A stretch of DNA of 64,000 nt from a virus (Duplodnaviria > Heunggongvirae > Uroviricota > Caudoviricetes): positions 1 to 64,000 of the IMG/VR virus record IMGVR_UViG_3300012016_000001. One strand, 5' to 3'. Shown piece after piece: positions 3 through 14,873 of this stretch; the first letter of the stretch is position 1; the number at the start of each line of letters is the position of its first letter. The translations under genes were made by a program, and so were the position numbers. Under the pieces are notes generated by a model. The model did not search any database. It saw only the letters and a program-made list of their open reading frames with translations, and was not told the origin of the DNA.

Positions 3-809
3 GATGTTAAAAGTTTGTATCCAAAAACTTATCAAAGAGAATTGGTTAATAAACAATTTAATCAACTCATTGATGTAGCTAAACAGGATATGAATCGTCA
101 AACTGGCTTTATAGTGGCTCTTGATGTTTCAGGGTCAATGACCTCTAAAGCTCCAGGTACAGGACGTTCTGCTTATTCTGTTGGGCGTGCTATGGCATTG
201 TACTTCTCTGAATTATTAAAAGGTAAGTTTGCACATACATTCTTAGCTTTTAGTAATACAGTTGTGATAGATAGATTTGAAGGTAAAACTCCTTTAGAGA
301 AATATTACAATGGATATAGAAAGTATGATGCTTGTAACACTAACTTCTTCCAGATTGCTCAGTTGTTTGTGCAACTAAAGAATAGAGGATACAAAGAAGA
401 AGATTTTCCAACAGGTATCGTATGTATATCTGATGGAGAATTTGATAGACCTGGAGGAGACTGGAATAGTACTGGTGATTCTGATTGGAGATATAGAGGA
501 AAAGAAACCAGAGAGACAGTCTTTGAATCTTTTAAGAATCATTTAAAGAAAAATGGCTTCTCCGAAGAGTATGTTGATAACTTAAAAATGGTTCTTTGGG
601 ATGTTCCAAGCTATTACTATAGTTCTAGTCCAGATGTAAAGTTTGAAGCTCTTGCAGACACTCCAAACATTTTCCACATGAGTGGATATGACCCTGCAGG
701 TATTGCTTTCTTAACAGGAACATCACAAGTACAAGTAATTCCAAAAACTCCAGAGGAGTTATTTGAGGCTGCTATGCAGCAAGAGTTAATCCAATTGCTA
801 AACATTTGA
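3..809 (+). CDS. von Willebrand factor A (vWA) domain protein, 5' end outside window
   Basis: Frame is open to the window edge. MIDAS-like motif VALDVSGSM and downstream ISDGE motif. Confidence 0.6.
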   Translation, partial: DVKSLYPKTYQRELVNKQFNQLIDVAKQDMNRQTGFIVALDVSGSMTSKAPGTGRSAYSVGRAMALYFSELLKGKFAHTFLAFSNTVVIDRFEGKTPLEKYYNGYRKYDACNTNFFQIAQLFVQLKNRGYKEEDFPTGIVCISDGEFDRPGGDWNSTGDSDWRYRGKETRETVFESFKNHLKKNGFSEEYVDNLKMVLWDVPSYYYSSSPDVKFEALADTPNIFHMSGYDPAGIAFLTGTSQVQVIPKTPEELFEAAMQQELIQLLNI

Positions 810-2931: not shown

Positions 2932-2976
2932 GTTAAATCAAAATCTGTATTAGAAAGTGAAGTTTACCCTTCTAAT

Positions 2977-3050
2977 GCTCCTTTAGCTCAGTTGGATAGA
3001 GCAATAGCCTTCTAAGCTATGGGTCGTTGGTTCGAATCCAACAGGGAGTA
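2977..3050 (+). tRNA. tRNA-Arg(TCT)
   Basis: Acceptor GCTCCTT/AGGGAGT, D-arm GCTC..GAGC, loop CTTCTAA, T-arm GTTGG-TTCGAAT-CCAAC. Confidence 0.85.
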
Positions 3051-3055
3051 CTAGT

Positions 3056-3178
3056 ATGAAAGAAAAATTAAGACAATGGTTCTATTCAATTAATGTCAAT
3101 AAGTATAGACATTATTTTGAGGAATGGTATTCCAATTTAACTCCTCAACAATTAAGATGGTATGAAAAAATATTCTAG
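3056..3178 (+). CDS. small hypothetical protein (40 aa) ending in TAG; would extend to 3208 if TAG is read through
   Basis: ATG at 3056, TAG at 3176-3178, next in-frame stop TGA at 3206-3208. Confidence 0.3.
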   Translation: MKEKLRQWFYSINVNKYRHYFEEWYSNLTPQQLRWYEKIF

Positions 3179-3210
3179 ATTAGACGAATTAAAGTAAAAA
3201 ATAAGTGAAA

Positions 3211-3834
3211 ATGAAGAAATTTTTAGTACTCATGTTTGCCTTACTAATGGCTATTAGTTTTTAGAGTTGCACCAACTGTAGTGGTAATCCCAGTCTAAAC
3301 AGTCCTGTTAAAACTGAACTTGTAGTGGATCAAGCTATTAGCTTAGATAACTAGTACATGTTCATGAATTATGGTGAGAACTATCGTTGGTTTGAAACTT
3401 GCGTTCTTATGGACGATTTCCTAGATGAGGAAACTGATGGAAGTGTTAATATGGTTGTTAATATCTATCAGGTTGCAAAAGGTGATGATAAATCTTTCGA
3501 TGTTAAAGTATTCAAGTTTCAACACTTAAAAGATGGAACTGTTTTGAAAGATTCTGTTGCTGGTTTTTGGATAGAAGATAATCCTTTGAATGATTCAACT
3601 ATAAAGATTGATTACAAGGAAGCCTTTAATCTTGTTCAAAAGGTAAATCTACCTAAACCACATACTAGAAATGCTATTCTAAGGAATCCTCTTGGTCCTC
3701 TAGACACTAATCCACAGTGGGTGTTCGGAAATATCCGTGAACAAATATGGGTGGATGCAACCACAGGAGAAATTAGAAAATCAAATCCAGCATTTCCTGA
3801 TGAATTAAAAATGCCTCTTGGTGAATGGCCCTGA
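3211..3834 (+). CDS. putative lipoprotein containing two in-frame TAG codons (3262-3264 and 3352-3354)
   Basis: ATG at 3211 encodes MKKFLVLMFALLMAISF-TAG-SC, a signal peptide plus Cys. It is in frame with track ORF 3358-3834, and the only interruptions are two TAGs. Confidence 0.55.
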
Positions 3835-3919
3835 TTTCACTCTTTGAGCTAGTTGGGAAACTAGCATGTAAAACCGATATTTTTCATAAATTATTAGGAG
3901 CTACGAGTTAGCTCCATTT

Positions 3920-3993
3920 GGGGGTAGTGGTGTAAATGGCTAACACATAATCCTTGCAAGATTAAATTTAGGGTTCGAGTCCCTCTACTTCCA
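3920..3993 (+). tRNA. tRNA-Ala(TGC)
   Basis: Acceptor GGGGGTA/TACTTCC with a G3:U70 wobble (Ala identity), loop CTTGCAA, T-loop TTCGAGT. Confidence 0.8.
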
Positions 3994-3997
3994 CATA

Positions 3998-4065
3998 CAG
4001 AAGACACACAGCAAGTGCTTTATAATAAAAAATTTTAGGGAAATTTAATAATTATAAGTCTTCTG
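3998..4065 (+). ncRNA. CAGCAA-box long-range-helix element, copy E2
   Basis: CAGAAGAC (3998-4005) pairs with GTCTTCTG (4058-4065). CAGCAA at 4009-4014. Confidence 0.5.
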
Positions 4066-4070
4066 ATTTT

Positions 4071-4146
4071 GGCTTGTTGAGCCCACTGGAGTGGGAACTT
4101 GACTGTCACTCAAGTAAAACAAAGGGATCGATACCCTTGCAGGCCG
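4071..4146 (+). tRNA. tRNA-Asp(GTC), atypical D-arm and T-loop
   Basis: Acceptor GGCTTGT/GCAGGCC, anticodon arm CTTGA-CTGTCAC-TCAAG, T-arm AAGGG-ATCGATA-CCCTT with A at position 54. Confidence 0.55.
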
Positions 4147-4203
4147 CTAAATCAAAACTAATGAGTCTCTAAAGTATTTTTAAACAATTAAAGTGTAACC
4201 TGT

Positions 4204-4461
4204 ATGATTAACTCGATTCCTATAATGGACCAGAAGATTATTGATAAGTATTTTCCTGGCCAAGCAGTCAAGTCAATCATGCGTACACCGTTAAAGTCTG
4301 TGAGAGGCTATTCACTTGAAGGAAACAAAGGATTGCTTATAAGCACTCCGAAACTTAAACACCTTCTTGCTCTTTATGCTTCTCAGATAGCGTTACAAAC
4401 AAAATGGAATACTTCCCTTAATAAGGAAGGAGACCATTTGATTTGTCTCTTGTACCCTTAA
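4204..4461 (+). CDS. hypothetical protein (85 aa) between tRNA genes
   Basis: Track ORF. It is preceded by the 15-mer AACAATTAAAGTGTA, which recurs at 8315. Coding status is uncertain. Confidence 0.3.
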   Translation: MINSIPIMDQKIIDKYFPGQAVKSIMRTPLKSVRGYSLEGNKGLLISTPKLKHLLALYASQIALQTKWNTSLNKEGDHLICLLYP

Positions 4462-4472
4462 ATGGGTAATAC

Positions 4473-4543
4473 TGGTCCTTAGTTTAGTGGTAAAACGATG
4501 GTCTCCAAAACCATTGTCATCTGTTCGATTCAGATAGGGCCTG
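4473..4543 (+). tRNA. tRNA-Trp(CCA)
   Basis: Anticodon arm ATGGT-CTCCAAA-ACCAT, T-arm ATCTG-TTCGATT-CAGAT. The acceptor has one mismatch in either register. Confidence 0.7.
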
Positions 4544-4576
4544 CAATCACTAAAGGGAAAAGAAACTGTAGTTTAT

Positions 4577-4647
4577 GGGCAATTGTCCGAGCGATTAGGT
4601 GGCGGACTGCAAATCCGTCTAGACAGGTTTGACTCCTGTATTGCCTT
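4577..4647 (+). tRNA. tRNA-Cys(GCA)
   Basis: Acceptor GGGCAAT/ATTGCCT, anticodon arm GCGGA-CTGCAAA-TCCGT, T-arm ACAGG-TTTGACT-CCTGT. Confidence 0.75.
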
Positions 4648-4685
4648 CATCAAATGATGTTGATTTTTTGCATATTAATGACTTT

Positions 4686-4713
4686 AGTGTCTGGTTCGTG
4701 AGAATAGGACACT
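4686..4713 (+). ncRNA. conserved-loop hairpin H1 (loop TGGTTCGTGAGAATAG), 9 nt upstream of a tRNA
   Basis: Stem AGTGTC/GACACT. The loop is shared with H2-H4 while the stems differ. Confidence 0.5.
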
Positions 4714-4721
4714 TTTTACAT

Positions 4722-4793
4722 CGCAGGGTAGAGCAGTGGTAGCTCGCAAGTTTCATAAGCTTGAAGTCGTTAGTTCGAATCTAACCCCTGCAA
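4722..4793 (+). tRNA. initiator-like tRNA-fMet(CAT)
   Basis: CGCAGGG..CCCTGCA gives a C1-A72 mismatch as in bacterial tRNA-fMet, and overall similarity to E. coli tRNA-fMet in the acceptor and D-arm. The anticodon stem CAAGT/GCTTG lacks the three G-C pairs. Confidence 0.75.
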
Positions 4794-4959: not shown

Positions 4960-5027
4960 CTATGCATCGGCTTAGGACTGTTGCGTTACGCTTCCTCATG
5001 GTGATACCTTTAAGGTAGAGGAAGAAA

Positions 5028-5086
5028 GGAGTACACACAGCAATGTTTTTATACAGTTATGATATTGCAGAGTTGTTTTGTACTCC
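5028..5086 (+). ncRNA. CAGCAA-box long-range-helix element, copy E3
   Basis: GGAGTACA (5028-5035) pairs with TGTACTCC (5079-5086). CAGCAA at 5038-5043. Confidence 0.5.
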
Positions 5087-5090
5087 GTAT

Positions 5091-5116
5091 GAGGTTGGCT
5101 TTGTCCAACCTCTTTT
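5091..5116 (+). terminator. terminator-like hairpin abutting the next tRNA
   Basis: GAGGTTGG (5091-5098) pairs with CCAACCTC (5105-5112), followed by TTTT. It could instead be a processing hairpin. Confidence 0.4.
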
Positions 5117-5205
5117 GCCCTCATCGTATATCGGTCAGTGCTGGAAACAGACGATTACCCCTGCCTTTTAAGCAGGTAAGCATGGTTCGACTCCATGTGG
5201 GGGCA
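5117..5205 (+). tRNA. tRNA-Lys(TTT) with about 17-nt expansion of the D-arm (89 nt)
   Basis: Acceptor GCCCTCA/TGGGGGC, anticodon arm CCTGC-CTTTTAA-GCAGG, T-arm CATGG-TTCGACT-CCATG. The D region is GTA-T-ATCG...CTG-GAAA-CAG...CGAT-TAC, an extended helix carrying a GAAA-capped hairpin. Confidence 0.6.
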
Positions 5206-5244
5206 CTATAAAAATCAAGACAATAAAAGTAGTTTTTAAGAAAT

Positions 5245-5376
5245 AAAGAAGTCTTACAGCAATAACAATTAATCTAAGTTTACCAAAAAGCGCTGAACTT
5301 GTAGTTCAATGGTAGAATACCTTTTTATTAAAAAGGAGATGACGGTTCGAATCCGTGTGGCAAAAAAGACTTCTTT
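5245..5376 (+). ncRNA. CAGCAA-box element, copy E4, enclosing a tRNA-like core without a conventional acceptor stem
   Basis: AAAGAAGTCTT (5245-5255) pairs with AAGACTTCTTT (5366-5376). CAGCAA at 5257-5262. Inside are a D-arm GTTC-AATGGTA-GAAT, the hairpin CCTTT-TTATTAA-AAAGG, and a T-arm ACGG-TTCGAAT-CCGT. Confidence 0.5.
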
Positions 5377-5379
5377 TAT

Positions 5380-5452
5380 AGAGCTATCCTCTAATAGGTT
5401 AGGAGACGTGACTGATAATCACGCAATCCCAGTTCAAGTCTGGGTAGCTCTA
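5380..5452 (+). tRNA. tRNA-Ile(GAT)
   Basis: Acceptor AGAGCTA/TAGCTCT, anticodon arm CGTGA-CTGATAA-TCACG, T-arm CCCAG-TTCAAGT-CTGGG. Confidence 0.85.
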
Positions 5453-6876: not shown

Positions 6877-7010
6877 ACTTTAAATATTGACCCTAGCTTT
6901 AGCTTCACACTTTAGCTTTACAGAATCCTAGATAGTAAGCATCAATGTTGTGGTCAAAAGCTTTAGCGAAGTTGATTACAGTGTATTACTTACCTTGACG
7001 ACTATTATCG

Positions 7011-7154
7011 CTCGGTAATCGCGGGTTCAAATCCCGTCCCGCCCTCAAACAGAGTTCTTCTGAACTCTGCCCTTTCATGTTACTTTAGTCATTGCTTGTG
7101 AAAGTAGTGACTATATGGGCGGGTCGTCTAGTGGTTAAGACTCCGGGTTTTTAA
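7011..7154 (+). tRNA. circularly permuted tRNA-Lys(UUU)-like gene: 3' half (7011-7045) lies upstream of the 5' half (7117-7154)
   Basis: The 3' half is CTCGG-TAATC-GCGGG-TTCAAAT-CCCGT-CCCGCCC-T. The 5' half is GGGCGGG-TC-GTCT-AGTGGTTA-AGAC-T-CCGGG-TTTTTAA. Acceptor and anticodon stems are complementary only between the two halves. Neither half has a partner in the normal gene order. Confidence 0.55.
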
Positions 7155-7228
7155 GCATCAGCATTATAGGGTAAAATGTAATACGCAAAAGTTCATGGAT
7201 TAGTAAGACGGATTTGTCGCTAATCCTA

Positions 7229-7301
7229 GGGAGAGTAGCTCAGTGGTTAAAGCAATAGTCGCTAAAACTATCGATCGAGGGTTCGAATCCCTCCTCTCCT
7301 G
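7229..7301 (+). tRNA. amber-suppressor tRNA, anticodon CTA (reads UAG), with G at position 33
   Basis: A 73-nt canonical cloverleaf: acceptor GGGAGAG/CTCTCCT, anticodon arm ATAGT-CGCTAAA-ACTAT, T-arm GAGGG-TTCGAAT-CCCTC. Confidence 0.75.
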
Positions 7302-7364
7302 CTTATGTTACCATATTATATTATTTTTTCGTTAGTATCTGTCTGTGAAGATCGATACTAAGTC

Positions 7365-7459
7365 AGCGGGTTATGCAAATGGTAAAGCAGTAGTTTATCT
7401 ATGTGAGTACGTATAGTTCTAGGCCAGTACTCTTGGGAGTTCGAGTCTCTCACCCGCTA
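7365..7459 (+). tRNA. 95-nt tRNA-like gene, anticodon undetermined
   Basis: Perfect acceptor AGCGGGT/ACCCGCT, D-arm TGC-AAATGGTAAA-GCA, T-arm GGGAG-TTCGAGT-CTCTC. The 44-nt central region has no canonical 5-7-5 anticodon arm. Its best helices are GAGTAC/GTACTC and CTATG-(8 nt)-TATAG. Confidence 0.4.
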
Positions 7460-7498
7460 CAAATTAATTTAAAACAAATTGGGTAAAAAATAACCTAT

Positions 7499-10704: not shown

Positions 10705-11063
10705 GGGCCTGACCGGATTTGACGGCTTCTGAAGGTAAATCACTCACTCATGACTGATGGAAAGACATCAAAAAAATTAAACGGAGAAAATAACACAACT
10801 CCCCGCGCTAAAGTTGTTAGCATCGTTTATAGAGCTGCAGCTTGATCGACGCCTGGTAAAAGGGTAACCAAGGAACATAATACCCTTAATTTCTTTATTT
10901 TTAGCCAATAATATTCTGCGCCTATCGGAGATATAACTAAATAGGCTGGTGGAAAGTCAGACAACAGTCTGCCCCAGAGAAGGAAACTCTTATAAAACCT
11001 ATGAGTGTAAGAATGTGATGAGAATAGGATTCGCGGACGAGGGTTCGACTCCCTCCAGGTCCA
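10705..11063 (+). ncRNA. ssrA: tmRNA (SsrA), one-piece
   Basis: The 5' end GGGCCTGACCGGATTTGACGG and the 3' end GGACGAGGGTTCGACTCCCTCCAGGTCCA closely resemble bacterial tmRNA termini. Acceptor GGGCCTG/CAGGTCC has a G3:U70 pair. Internal tag ORF at 10783-10845. Confidence 0.88.
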
Positions 11064-11317
11064 CTTGTTAAATAATGTTAAATTTATTGTGGATTTATAT
11101 TGTTATTTATATATTTAATCCTGTAAAAACGTTCATTATAGTAAAGATAAAATGTTCCAGCACTCACGGCTACAAACTGAGTGACTAGTGTTCAACAAGA
11201 GCGCAGTATTACTATCACAGCTGAACTATAGAGGCAGTGAAGACTTTATGGTCGAACTGAGGGCAGTTTAGTCTGGAACAATCTAAGCTGTTCTCTTTAC
11301 TTGTGAAATTCATAAAT

Positions 11318-11979: not shown

Positions 11980-12183
11980 ATGAAAGAAAGAATAAGAAAG
12001 ATTATTGAAAGAATTACTGAACGTAAAATTACAAATGATGATGAGCCTATAGAGATGGATAGTATAGACACTATGGAAGTTATAGTAAGTCTAGAGTATG
12101 AATATGACATCCATATAGATACTATTATAAAGGAGGATTTATCATTAAATGATTACGTTGAGTTAGTTAGGAGCATGGTGTAA
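11980..12183 (+). CDS. acyl carrier protein-like small protein
   Basis: 67 aa with EMDSIDTMEVIVSLEYEY, which matches the ACP DSLD phosphopantetheine-site helix. The track ORF N-terminus overlaps tRNA-His. Confidence 0.55.
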   Translation: MKERIRKIIERITERKITNDDEPIEMDSIDTMEVIVSLEYEYDIHIDTIIKEDLSLNDYVELVRSMV

Positions 12184-12252
12184 TGGTAGCACATCTGACT
12201 TTGACTCAGAAGGGAGCGTGAGCCACTGCAGGTTCGAGTCCTGCTGCTCCTA
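12169..12252 (+). tRNA. tRNA-Gln(TTG) with a 17-nt variable region; overlaps the last 15 nt of the ACP-like CDS
   Basis: Acceptor AGGAGCA/TGCTCCT, anticodon arm TCTGA-CTTTGAC-TCAGA, variable region AGGGAGCGTGAGCCACT (GC-GTGA-GC mini-hairpin), T-arm GCAGG-TTCGAGT-CCTGC. Confidence 0.7.
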
Positions 12253-12290
12253 CTTGTCTCCATTAAGGAGAATTTTAAAGGTGTTTGTTC

Positions 12291-12325: not shown

Positions 12326-12410
12326 GCTGCGTTCGACTAGTGGCTTAGGTCACAAGACTTTCAATCTTGTAGGATGAAAATCCTCAGGGGTTCGAATCCC
12401 CTACGCAGTA
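12326..12410 (+). tRNA. tRNA-Glu(TTC) with a 16-nt variable arm
   Basis: Acceptor GCTGCGT/ACGCAGT, anticodon arm CAAGA-CTTTCAA-TCTTG, variable arm T-AGGAT-GAAA-ATCCT-C, T-arm AGGGG-TTCGAAT-CCCCT. Confidence 0.75.
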
Positions 12411-12414
12411 CTAA

Positions 12415-14264: not shown

Positions 14265-14487
14265 AATTGGACACGGAACAAATGGCTATATTTTTGAAGA
14301 GATAGAAAAAGTAAAAGCTTGTAATTATTGTATACATTTTAAAGGTTATGGTTTACATGCTTGCAGTGGTCATTGTTCCAAGTTTGGTAAAGATGTTAAT
14401 GGAGGTTATATTGGTGTTTACTCTGAAACAGCAATAGAGTGTGGTGATTTTGAAGTAAGACCTGAACTATTAAAAATAAATATATGA
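14254..14487 (+). CDS. hypothetical protein
   Basis: 77-aa ORF. Confidence 0.4.
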   Translation: MRIKIGHGTNGYIFEEIEKVKACNYCIHFKGYGLHACSGHCSKFGKDVNGGYIGVYSETAIECGDFEVRPELLKINI

Positions 14488-14873
14488 AACAAGAAGATAA
14501 AGAACTACTATTAAAAGACCTTAGTGCAAGATTACCTTATGGAGTAAAGGTACAAGTCGGCGAGGATATGTGTATGACACTTAGGCAAATTGATTCTAAT
14601 TGTTTTTGCGAGTGTTGGGGAAATGAAGATTTTAAATGTCATTCAAGGTGGATGCTTCCATTCCTCCGCCCAATGTCAAGCATGACTGAGGAAGAAAAAG
14701 AAGAATATATTAGTATTAAACAAGGAGAATGCAATGGTTGTGTTCTTACAGGAAAAGGTGACCAGAATACAGAATTTTTATTGGTAGATTTTTTCAATTC
14801 TCATCATTTTGACTATCGTGGTCTAATTGAGAAAGGTCTTGCGTTAGAAGCACCTGAAGGAATGTATAAATGA
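14484..14873 (+). CDS. hypothetical protein, paralog family A (copy 2)
   Basis: See 13809-14264. Confidence 0.55.
   Translation: MKQEDKELLLKDLSARLPYGVKVQVGEDMCMTLRQIDSNCFCECWGNEDFKCHSRWMLPFLRPMSSMTEEEKEEYISIKQGECNGCVLTGKGDQNTEFLLVDFFNSHHFDYRGLIEKGLALEAPEGMYK

Follow-up and report, generated by a model that had tools for sequence, protein, structure and literature searches.

A predicted tRNA-Lys(UUU) gene in the tRNA array of a gut phage carries 17 additional nucleotides in its D region

Can a tRNA gene with nearly twice the usual number of nucleotides between its acceptor and anticodon stems still encode a working lysine tRNA, and where exactly do the additional bases lie? The question is raised by a tRNA-like gene with a span of 89 nt on the + strand, at positions 5117 to 5205 of the window, by which we mean the whole stretch of 64,000 nucleotides that was analyzed (positions 1 to 64,000 of IMG/VR record IMGVR_UViG_3300012016_000001, Caudoviricetes). 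The gene belongs to a gut-phage tRNA array of 22 ARAGORN tRNA calls and a tmRNA, located at 2.7-12.5 kb of the window. The 194-kb gut metagenome contig k127_265521 (ENA ERZ964482) is identical to the window over 16.9 kb. In an earlier note on this DNA, the gene had been described as a tRNA-Lys(UUU) in which a structured insertion of about 17 nt replaces the D arm.

From 5′ to 3′, the gene reads GCCCUCA UC GUAU AUCGGUCA GUGC U GGAAACAGACGAUUACC CCUGC CUUUUAA GCAGG UAAG CAUGG UUCGACU CCAUG UGGGGGC A. The 5′ strand of the acceptor stem (GCCCTCA, 5117-5123) pairs at seven of seven positions with nucleotides 5198-5204, one pair being G-U, and the pair probability is at least 0.99 for six of the pairs. 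The anticodon arm CCUGC-CUUUUAA-GCAGG (5160-5176) is formed by a 5-bp stem, with pair probabilities of 0.95-0.99, and a 7-nt loop with U33 and a purine at position 37; the UUU triplet occupies 5167-5169. It is followed by a variable loop of 4 nt without a variable arm (UAAG, 5177-5180), so that the stem-loop between positions 44 and 48 that marks class II tRNAs is absent. Such a stem-loop is obtained only if the CUUUUAA arm itself is read as a variable arm, against which the orthologues argue. The T arm CAUGG-UUCGACU-CCAUG (5181-5197) has the 5-bp stem and the UUCRANY loop of elongator tRNAs, with a pair probability of at least 0.95. The acceptor stem's 3′ strand, UGGGGGC, ends the gene together with the discriminator base A73 (5198-5205), and CCA is not encoded. 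Acceptor, anticodon and T arms were each recovered by nearest-neighbour folding with pair probabilities above 0.95, in full agreement with the earlier description of these three parts as canonical. Outside the D region, every tRNA element is thus intact. The identity elements of bacterial LysRS are the anticodon UUU and the discriminator A73, and the gene has both (5167-5169 and 5205).

The identity of the gene was examined in relatives with a shared gene order, which were reached via the RNase H gene downstream of the array; the best one (L062, IMGVR_UViG_3300031994_000008) was extended, and L064 is a near-identical JGI contig. The ENA contigs L065, L067 and L069 were reached through DUF7873 homologues. 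The common order is Asn-Arg-(Ala)-Asp-Trp-Cys-Met-(Tyr)-Thr-X-...-Ile-Phe-DUF7873, in which X is tRNA-Lys(ttt) in L064, L065, L067 and L069, and the gene at 5117-5205 sits in this Thr-[Lys]-Ile-Phe slot, where all four related phages have a tRNA-Lys(UUU). The corresponding gene of L062/L064 measures 86 nt. The anticodon loop CUUUUAA is identical in L064, L065 and L069, and the stems vary from those of the orthologues by paired changes around this constant loop. In the anticodon stem, all five pairs differ from those of L067, the relative with the most similar acceptor stem. A covariance model made from seven tRNA-Lys genes of related phages matched 5117-5205 over its full length with 42 bits (E ~1e-10), CUUUUAA being aligned as the anticodon loop. 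This score lies far beyond chance and indicates a real tRNA-like gene. The general Rfam tRNA model RF00005 gave a local match only (5137-5197, 17.4 bits), below its gathering threshold of 29 bits, and in a 10.5-kb Rfam search the gene had no RF00005 match at E <= 1. The model of YrlA RNA (RF02553) found nothing at 5090-5380 even at E <= 10, and the ends of the gene form a plain 7-bp acceptor stem.

The relatives share with the window a structured element of about 150 nt immediately before the tRNA-Lys slot (4962-5116, + strand), which was delineated with RNAalifold on an alignment with L064, L065, L067 and L069. Its terminator-like hairpin (GAGGTTGG at 5091-5098, CCAACCTC at 5105-5112), followed by TTTT at 5113-5116, abuts the 5′ end of the tRNA. 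A long-range stem of 7 bp reads GGAGUAC/GUACUCC in the window vs AGAGUAC/GUACUCU in L064, and in the five genomes changes on both strands preserve this stem as well as the terminal hairpin. The element also contains the invariant motifs GUUACG and GGUGA and an ACAGC/GUUGU pairing; it had no match in Rfam. Another recurrent feature upstream of tRNA and tRNA-like genes is the motif (T)ACAGCAA(T) (+ strand, 2647, 5036, 5255, 5885, 7509 and others), often directly after the 5′ strand of a stem. The window holds 46 matches to it with at most one mismatch vs 21 expected, and the motif may serve as a promoter or in processing. An ORF of 42 codons (MFLYSYDIAELFCTPYEVGFVQPLLPSSYIGQCWKQTITPAF, 5043-5171), preceded by AGGAG at a distance of 11 nt, runs through the upstream element and then the tRNA's 5′ half; its stop codon is the UAA of the anticodon loop. 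It is probably fortuitous and was set aside, because it is not called in the public assemblies and such a length is expected by chance.

Since the window gene shares its slot, the gene order and this upstream element with the tRNA-Lys(UUU) genes, it is their counterpart. Together with the 42-bit match to the clade Lys model, these data show that the gene is a tRNA-Lys(UUU), the positional counterpart of the tRNA-Lys of related ~190-kb gut phages, as had been proposed. The same two observations, the synteny of the Lys slot and the shared upstream element, show that the ARAGORN call for this locus is wrong. ARAGORN reads a class II-like tRNA-Val with the anticodon arm GGAAA-CAGACGA-UUACC (GAC), the CUUUUAA hairpin becoming a variable arm that mimics Lys. 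Long variable arms are indeed common on the class I tRNAs of this clade, and the two hairpins are both exactly 17 nt long, although by eye just three of the 17 positions are alike. However, the proposed Val arm contains an A-A mismatch, carries A33 instead of U33 and has a pair probability of ~0.01, while the CUUUUAA arm matches the anticodon arm of the Lys orthologues. Moreover, in the variable arms of the clade the loop has 3-6 nt and the stem is preceded by an unpaired base, the array already has a tRNA-Val(UAC), and GUC is a rare codon (5 per 1000 codons). We regard this valine reading as very improbable.

We then located the additional bases. The spacing between acceptor and anticodon stem, given as 36 nt in the earlier note, is exactly that (5124-5159), against 18-22 nt normally, and an excess of about 17 nt in the D region is therefore borne out. 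In the register that resembles the orthologues, which follows the ARAGORN drawing and the comparison with L065, nucleotides 5124-5142 comprise U8, C9 and a D arm: the D stem GUAU (5126-5129), the D loop AUCGGUCA (5130-5137), the second D-stem strand GUGC (5138-5141) and U26 at 5142. The counterpart in L065 is GCUC-AGUAGGUA-GAGC-U. The D loop holds A14, G18G19 and A21. Two of the four D-stem pairs are G-U and the stem was not predicted by nearest-neighbour folding. The 17 extra nucleotides, GGAAACAGACGAUUACC, then form a block at 5143-5159, between position 26 and the anticodon stem. Alternatively, (U)UAC at 5155-5158 is the partner of GUA(U); in this second register C26 is nucleotide 5159, the extra nucleotides are 5138-5154 and the D loop has 25-27 nt; the best Infernal alignment takes this GUA/UAC stem with a loop of 27 nt. 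In neither register does the region have the form found in elongator tRNAs, a D arm of 3-4 bp with a loop of ~7-11 nt and a joint of the single nucleotide 26, and the energetics favour neither D stem decisively. The D arm has nevertheless not been replaced: a regular GUAU-AUCGGUCA-GUGC followed by U26, comparable to the arm of the orthologues, is retained. Because of its exact position between elements, the insertion leaves a canonical D arm in both registers.

The extra segment had also been thought to be structured, and this holds in part. The hairpin CUG-GAAA-CAG (5141-5150) is predicted with pair probabilities of 0.73-0.74, and the centroid fold has no other structure in this region; thermodynamic modeling points to it as the only supported structure of the extra region. 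The outer GUA/UAC pairing is recovered in the Infernal alignment. The full helix of GUA/UAC and AUCG/CGAU, however, has a pair probability of ~0.14 (-27.4 kcal/mol), and the 36-nt segment alone folded no better than its shuffles (z = 0.00). The five-arm fold drawn by ARAGORN has an energy of -24.1 kcal/mol, and the minimum free energy structure is a different fold (-30.8 kcal/mol).

Deletion of 5143-5159 or of 5138-5154 gives a perfect, canonical cloverleaf of 72 nt. A scan of such deletions cannot by itself locate the insertion, because ARAGORN labels almost any 11-22-nt deletion in the region as Lys(ttt) (208 deletion variants). The restored cloverleaf is what would be expected if the 17 nt were a small intervening sequence, excised to yield a normal tRNA-Lys. 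The gene resembles in this respect those archaeal tRNAs whose D arm or other parts hold small non-canonical introns, and in which a short segment outside the anticodon loop is removed to restore the cloverleaf. Their removal needs a bulge-helix-bulge motif and an archaeal or eukaryal endonuclease. The archaeal splicing endonuclease is not known from bacteria; the window is from a phage of bacteria, its array is bacterial in type, tmRNA included, and by eye a bulge-helix-bulge could not be drawn at either junction. The tRNA introns known from bacteria and phages are group I ribozymes that interrupt the anticodon loop and exceed 200 nt, whereas the segment has only 17 nt and lies outside this loop. 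Furthermore, Rfam Intron_gpI was unmatched in the window, though it was found in the tmRNA region of a relative. A removed intron, which the earlier note had considered, is on these grounds hardly credible. The relative concerned is L010, whose tmRNA region (6892-7474) contains a group I intron (Intron_gpI, 91 bits, 7227-7474); the window tmRNA (10705-11066) is without one.

How rare the addition is was estimated by a scan of all fetched loci that imposed a strict T arm, acceptor stem and anticodon arm and left the length of the D region free. Roughly 140-150 class I tRNAs were scanned and had D regions of 18-22 nt. After removal of mis-registered acceptors only two outliers were left, the tRNA-Lys (36 nt) and a tRNA(CAU) of L001 (28 nt). 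The latter (14465-14545), missed by ARAGORN, has a 4-bp D stem GUGA/UCAC and a D loop of 17 nt. A tRNA-Ala of L064 with an apparent D region of 44 nt was rejected, the acceptor stem being mis-registered and the gene length normal. The comparison with relatives called for earlier thus identified the Lys slot in four phages, but the 17-nt insertion in none of the loci compared. The insertion being absent from all these relatives, neither covariation nor signs of age speak for it.

A contig from a different biosample is 99.3% identical to the window over 2.5 kb, with 10 mismatches and one indel. It reads the same as the window through 5152, where it ends, and so covers the first 10 nt of the extra block. 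The presence of the same sequence in a contig from another biosample shows that the insertion is not an assembly artefact; the 17-nt addition in the D region is real and so far unique. Other searches returned little, close relatives being scarce. Four scans of IMG/VR for exact patterns (D loop with anticodon arm, anticodon arm with T loop, T arm with acceptor, and the upstream element) gave either nothing or L062 alone, and BLAST against 50,697 phage records matched only generic 3′ halves of tRNAs. In L001-L003 and L006-L008, whose DUF7873 protein is 80-90% identical, the region upstream of the DUF7873 gene is not shared; L070-L073, chosen by an 85-aa ORF, end before the Lys slot or differ there; and a search with a 158-aa ORF found no relatives. 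Of the two hits of a metagenome scan, one was a true relative and the other a chance match within a kinase gene. The 17-nt segment occurs only once in the window and was not matched in any of the fetched loci, and neither a source nor a duplication from which it arose was found there.

The search among relatives revealed a second departure from the standard tRNA form, which concerns the clade as a whole. The window's tRNA-Gln (12169-12253) and tRNA-Glu (12326-12411) bear long variable arms that end in GUGA and GAAA loops. Long variable arms were found on ten class I types (Lys, Gln, Glu, Pro, Arg, Asn, Thr, Trp, Met and Cys); the tRNAs that bear them are 80-93 nt long and have a patchy distribution among close relatives (L009, L010, L011, L064, L065, L067, L068 and L069). 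The idea that the extra arms are specific to tRNAs with 2-thiouridine-34 (Lys, Gln, Glu) was dropped, since seven further tRNA types carry them. In the tRNA-Lys of L064 and L069 the variable arms of 16 nt, GAAA-UUCG-UUUC and GAGA-UUUA-UCUC, differ by a paired change (GAAA/UUUC vs GAGA/UCUC), and the variable arm of tRNA-Glu persists in five lineages, two of its pairs having changed on both sides. These compensatory changes indicate that the added arms of the clade are held by selection. We did not find long variable arms on class I tRNAs described for phages in the literature; V-arm-containing class I tRNAs of eukaryotes are reported by Hamashima et al. 2016, as cited in PMC5389517. The tRNA-Lys of the window resembles class II tRNAs and class I tRNAs with long variable arms (allo-tRNAs, PMC5389517) in that a fifth helical element is added beside the anticodon stem, and the Gln and Glu tRNAs of the window and the Lys orthologues of L064 and L069 are of the long-variable-arm kind. 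In contrast to them, it carries its extra bases on the 5′ side of the anticodon stem, either at 26/27 or within the 3′ half of the D loop, and not at 44-48; the long variable arms found in the clade are all 3′ of the anticodon arm.

Several other tRNA-like elements lie in or near the array. An element at 5245-5375, with a tRNA-like core at 5302-5357, is enclosed by a 10-bp stem (AAGAAGTCTT ... AAGACTTCTT) that is kept in six lineages with the paired change TCGT/ACGA vs TCTT/AAGA. Its counterparts in five relatives have the anticodon loop CUCUAAA (CUA, amber-reading), and the window copy has the loop UUAUUAA and a poorly paired acceptor stem. This is probably the permuted candidate that had been paired with the gene under study in the statement that both Lys(UUU)-type genes of the window are abnormal. 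It is not of the Lys type, and as the window has a single UUU anticodon arm in a tRNA context the statement does not hold. A tRNA with the anticodon CUA at 7229-7302, labelled 'Pyl' by ARAGORN, is the counterpart of tRNA-Trp(CCA) in five relatives, from which at the anticodon it differs solely by C35 to U; this suggests that the phage decodes UAG as sense. At 7365-7459 lies a 95-nt tRNA-like RNA, missed by ARAGORN, with good acceptor, D and T arms (Rfam tRNA, 33 bits) and ~44 nt in place of the anticodon arm and variable loop (~22 nt). It is conserved in relatives (L009 2794-2889, L006 11386-11491), and near the corresponding place L010 has weak Rfam YrlA matches (29 bits vs a threshold of 69). 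An element of 110 nt in L002 (12600-12709) combines a perfect 7-bp acceptor (GGCGAGG/CCTCGCC) and a perfect T arm with 56 nt before a weak anticodon-like arm. Window positions 15-809 encode the C-terminal part of a DUF2828 and DUF7788 protein with a weak vWA_Ro60 match, of which L004 has the full gene (2962-4728); this Ro60-like gene stands just upstream of the tRNA array in the window phage and in its relatives L065 and L069. The Ro60-like protein and the odd tRNA-like RNAs raise the possibility of a phage pair of the Ro/Y-RNA type.

Is the tRNA-Lys still used? We favour this reading as the most likely one, with evenly balanced confidence: a tRNA-Lys that serves translation with the extra element looped out. 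It is favoured because the canonical elements are intact, the D arm is spared in two registers, the gene is the sole Lys tRNA, and the clade tolerates and maintains additional arms. The gene at 5117-5205 is the only lysine tRNA candidate in the 68 kb examined, and the window has no other UUU anticodon arm in a tRNA context. If the tRNA-Leu immediately upstream of the window is counted, tRNAs for 19 amino acids are encoded in the array. Among the codons in the long ORFs of the window, AAA ranks second (54 per 1000; G+C 33.5%). In the sequence of events that we envisage, 17 nt were gained in the lineage of the window between the D loop and the anticodon stem. The RNA would still be transcribed and cut out by RNase P and a 3′ nuclease, and CCA would then be added. 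The L shape would be kept with the extra bases looping out as a small GAAA-capped hairpin, either as a giant D loop or as a fifth arm at the 26/27 junction. Host LysRS could charge the molecule via U35/UUU and A73, and it would decode the very frequent AAA. The extra element may then be a further case of the addition of arms in this clade, on the unusual side of the anticodon arm.

Against continued use stand the score below the RF00005 threshold, the lack of the insertion in relatives and the z = 0 fold of the segment. In known tRNAs, D loops have ~4-11 nt (PMC7609411), and engineered hairpin-fused tRNAs mostly lost translational activity (PMC7590224). Other departures of the D arm are compatible with function: tRNA-Sec and allo-tRNAs have a D stem of 6-7 bp and a D loop of 4 nt (PMC7609411). 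Like these, the tRNA-Lys has a D arm off the norm, which in those tRNAs is functional and read by partner proteins. However, they combine a longer D stem and a smaller loop with an 8/5 or 9/4 geometry and a long variable arm, whereas the tRNA-Lys is of 7/5 geometry with 17 additional nucleotides. On the ribosome, tRNA positions 25-26 touch helix 69 of 23S rRNA, and the 26/44 hinge flexes in decoding. An arm at this place could interfere.

The same observations fit a gene that was recently disabled, the insertion leading to misfolding or to rejection by processing enzymes, LysRS or the ribosome, and the phage using host tRNA-Lys instead. We regard this, the main alternative, as a real possibility, if a somewhat doubtful one. 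The insertion is restricted to the lineage of the window, the extra segment is without stable structure, and the score is under the Rfam threshold. We know of no functional tRNA with extra bases at this position, and the review PMC7609411 names none. In the window's lineage the surroundings have also undergone loss and change: the conserved stretch downstream of Lys has been replaced and the neighbouring tRNA-like element altered. In addition, tRNA turnover is fast, as seen in the quite different arrays of the relatives with 80-90% identical DUF7873 proteins. A disabled gene is harder to reconcile with an insertion placed exactly between elements, with the sole Lys tRNA of an otherwise complete set, and with a sequence unchanged over the covered part in the second strain, where 10 positions differ in 2.5 kb.

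Finally, the molecule may be a look-alike that acts outside translation, either a decoy for a nuclease of the PrrC, RloC or PARIS AriB type or a ligand of a phage protein. tRNA-Lys(UUU) is a known target of PrrC, as had been pointed out, and of AriB (PMC12409363); the anticodon arm is perfect and the D region altered; and the Ro60-like vWA protein (DUF2828/DUF7788) is encoded a few kb upstream. The relatives, however, have an ordinary or variable-arm tRNA-Lys in the slot, from which it follows that the ancestral role was in translation. Nothing ties the insertion to a protein. A role of this kind is in our view unlikely.

Known cases of nuclease escape by phage tRNAs offer a partial parallel. 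The AriB nuclease of PARIS targets tRNA-Lys(UUU), and phage T5 escapes with its own tRNA-Lys (PMC12409363, PMC11464382, PMC10264068). The T5 gene does so by two substitutions in the anticodon stem, and AriB has also been proposed to contact the D loop (PMC12409363). In the known cases, phage tRNAs escape through one or two substitutions in the anticodon stem-loop, at the cleavage site or close to it, with no added structure (PMC12409363, PMC11464382, PMC10264068). As in T5, the window has a phage-encoded tRNA-Lys(UUU) off the standard form, and tRNA-Lys(UUU) is a preferred target of host nucleases; the window gene, however, has the standard CUUUUAA loop and its 17-nt addition lies elsewhere. 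Evasion of PrrC by the altered D region is speculation, and the same applies to any advantage, for example protection against a tRNA nuclease that contacts the D region.

Tentatively, and as a rather less than probable outcome, we put forward that the gene yields a working tRNA-Lys of five elements, with an arm on the 5′ side or a D loop of about three times the known maximum, as one result of the clade-wide decoration of class I tRNAs. Its architecture would be one not described for any functional tRNA. The hairpins might mark phage tRNAs, either for escape from the tRNA nucleases of hosts and rival phages or for recognition by a phage enzyme.

If the tRNA-Lys is active, processing enzymes, LysRS, EF-Tu and the ribosome must all tolerate an addition at the junction of D and anticodon arms or in the D loop. 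Since engineers treat that region as off limits, an active molecule would also offer those who build tagged tRNAs a design from nature. An inactive gene would simply capture tRNA gene decay in progress within a phage array that changes fast. The normal, variable-arm and D-side versions of one tRNA-Lys are natural variants for testing the proposed arms race between phages and tRNA-cutting defences. The more general result is the decoration of class I tRNAs with extra arms throughout the clade; together with these compensated variable-arm tRNAs, the tRNA-Lys points to a group of phages in which the shape of tRNAs evolves quickly.
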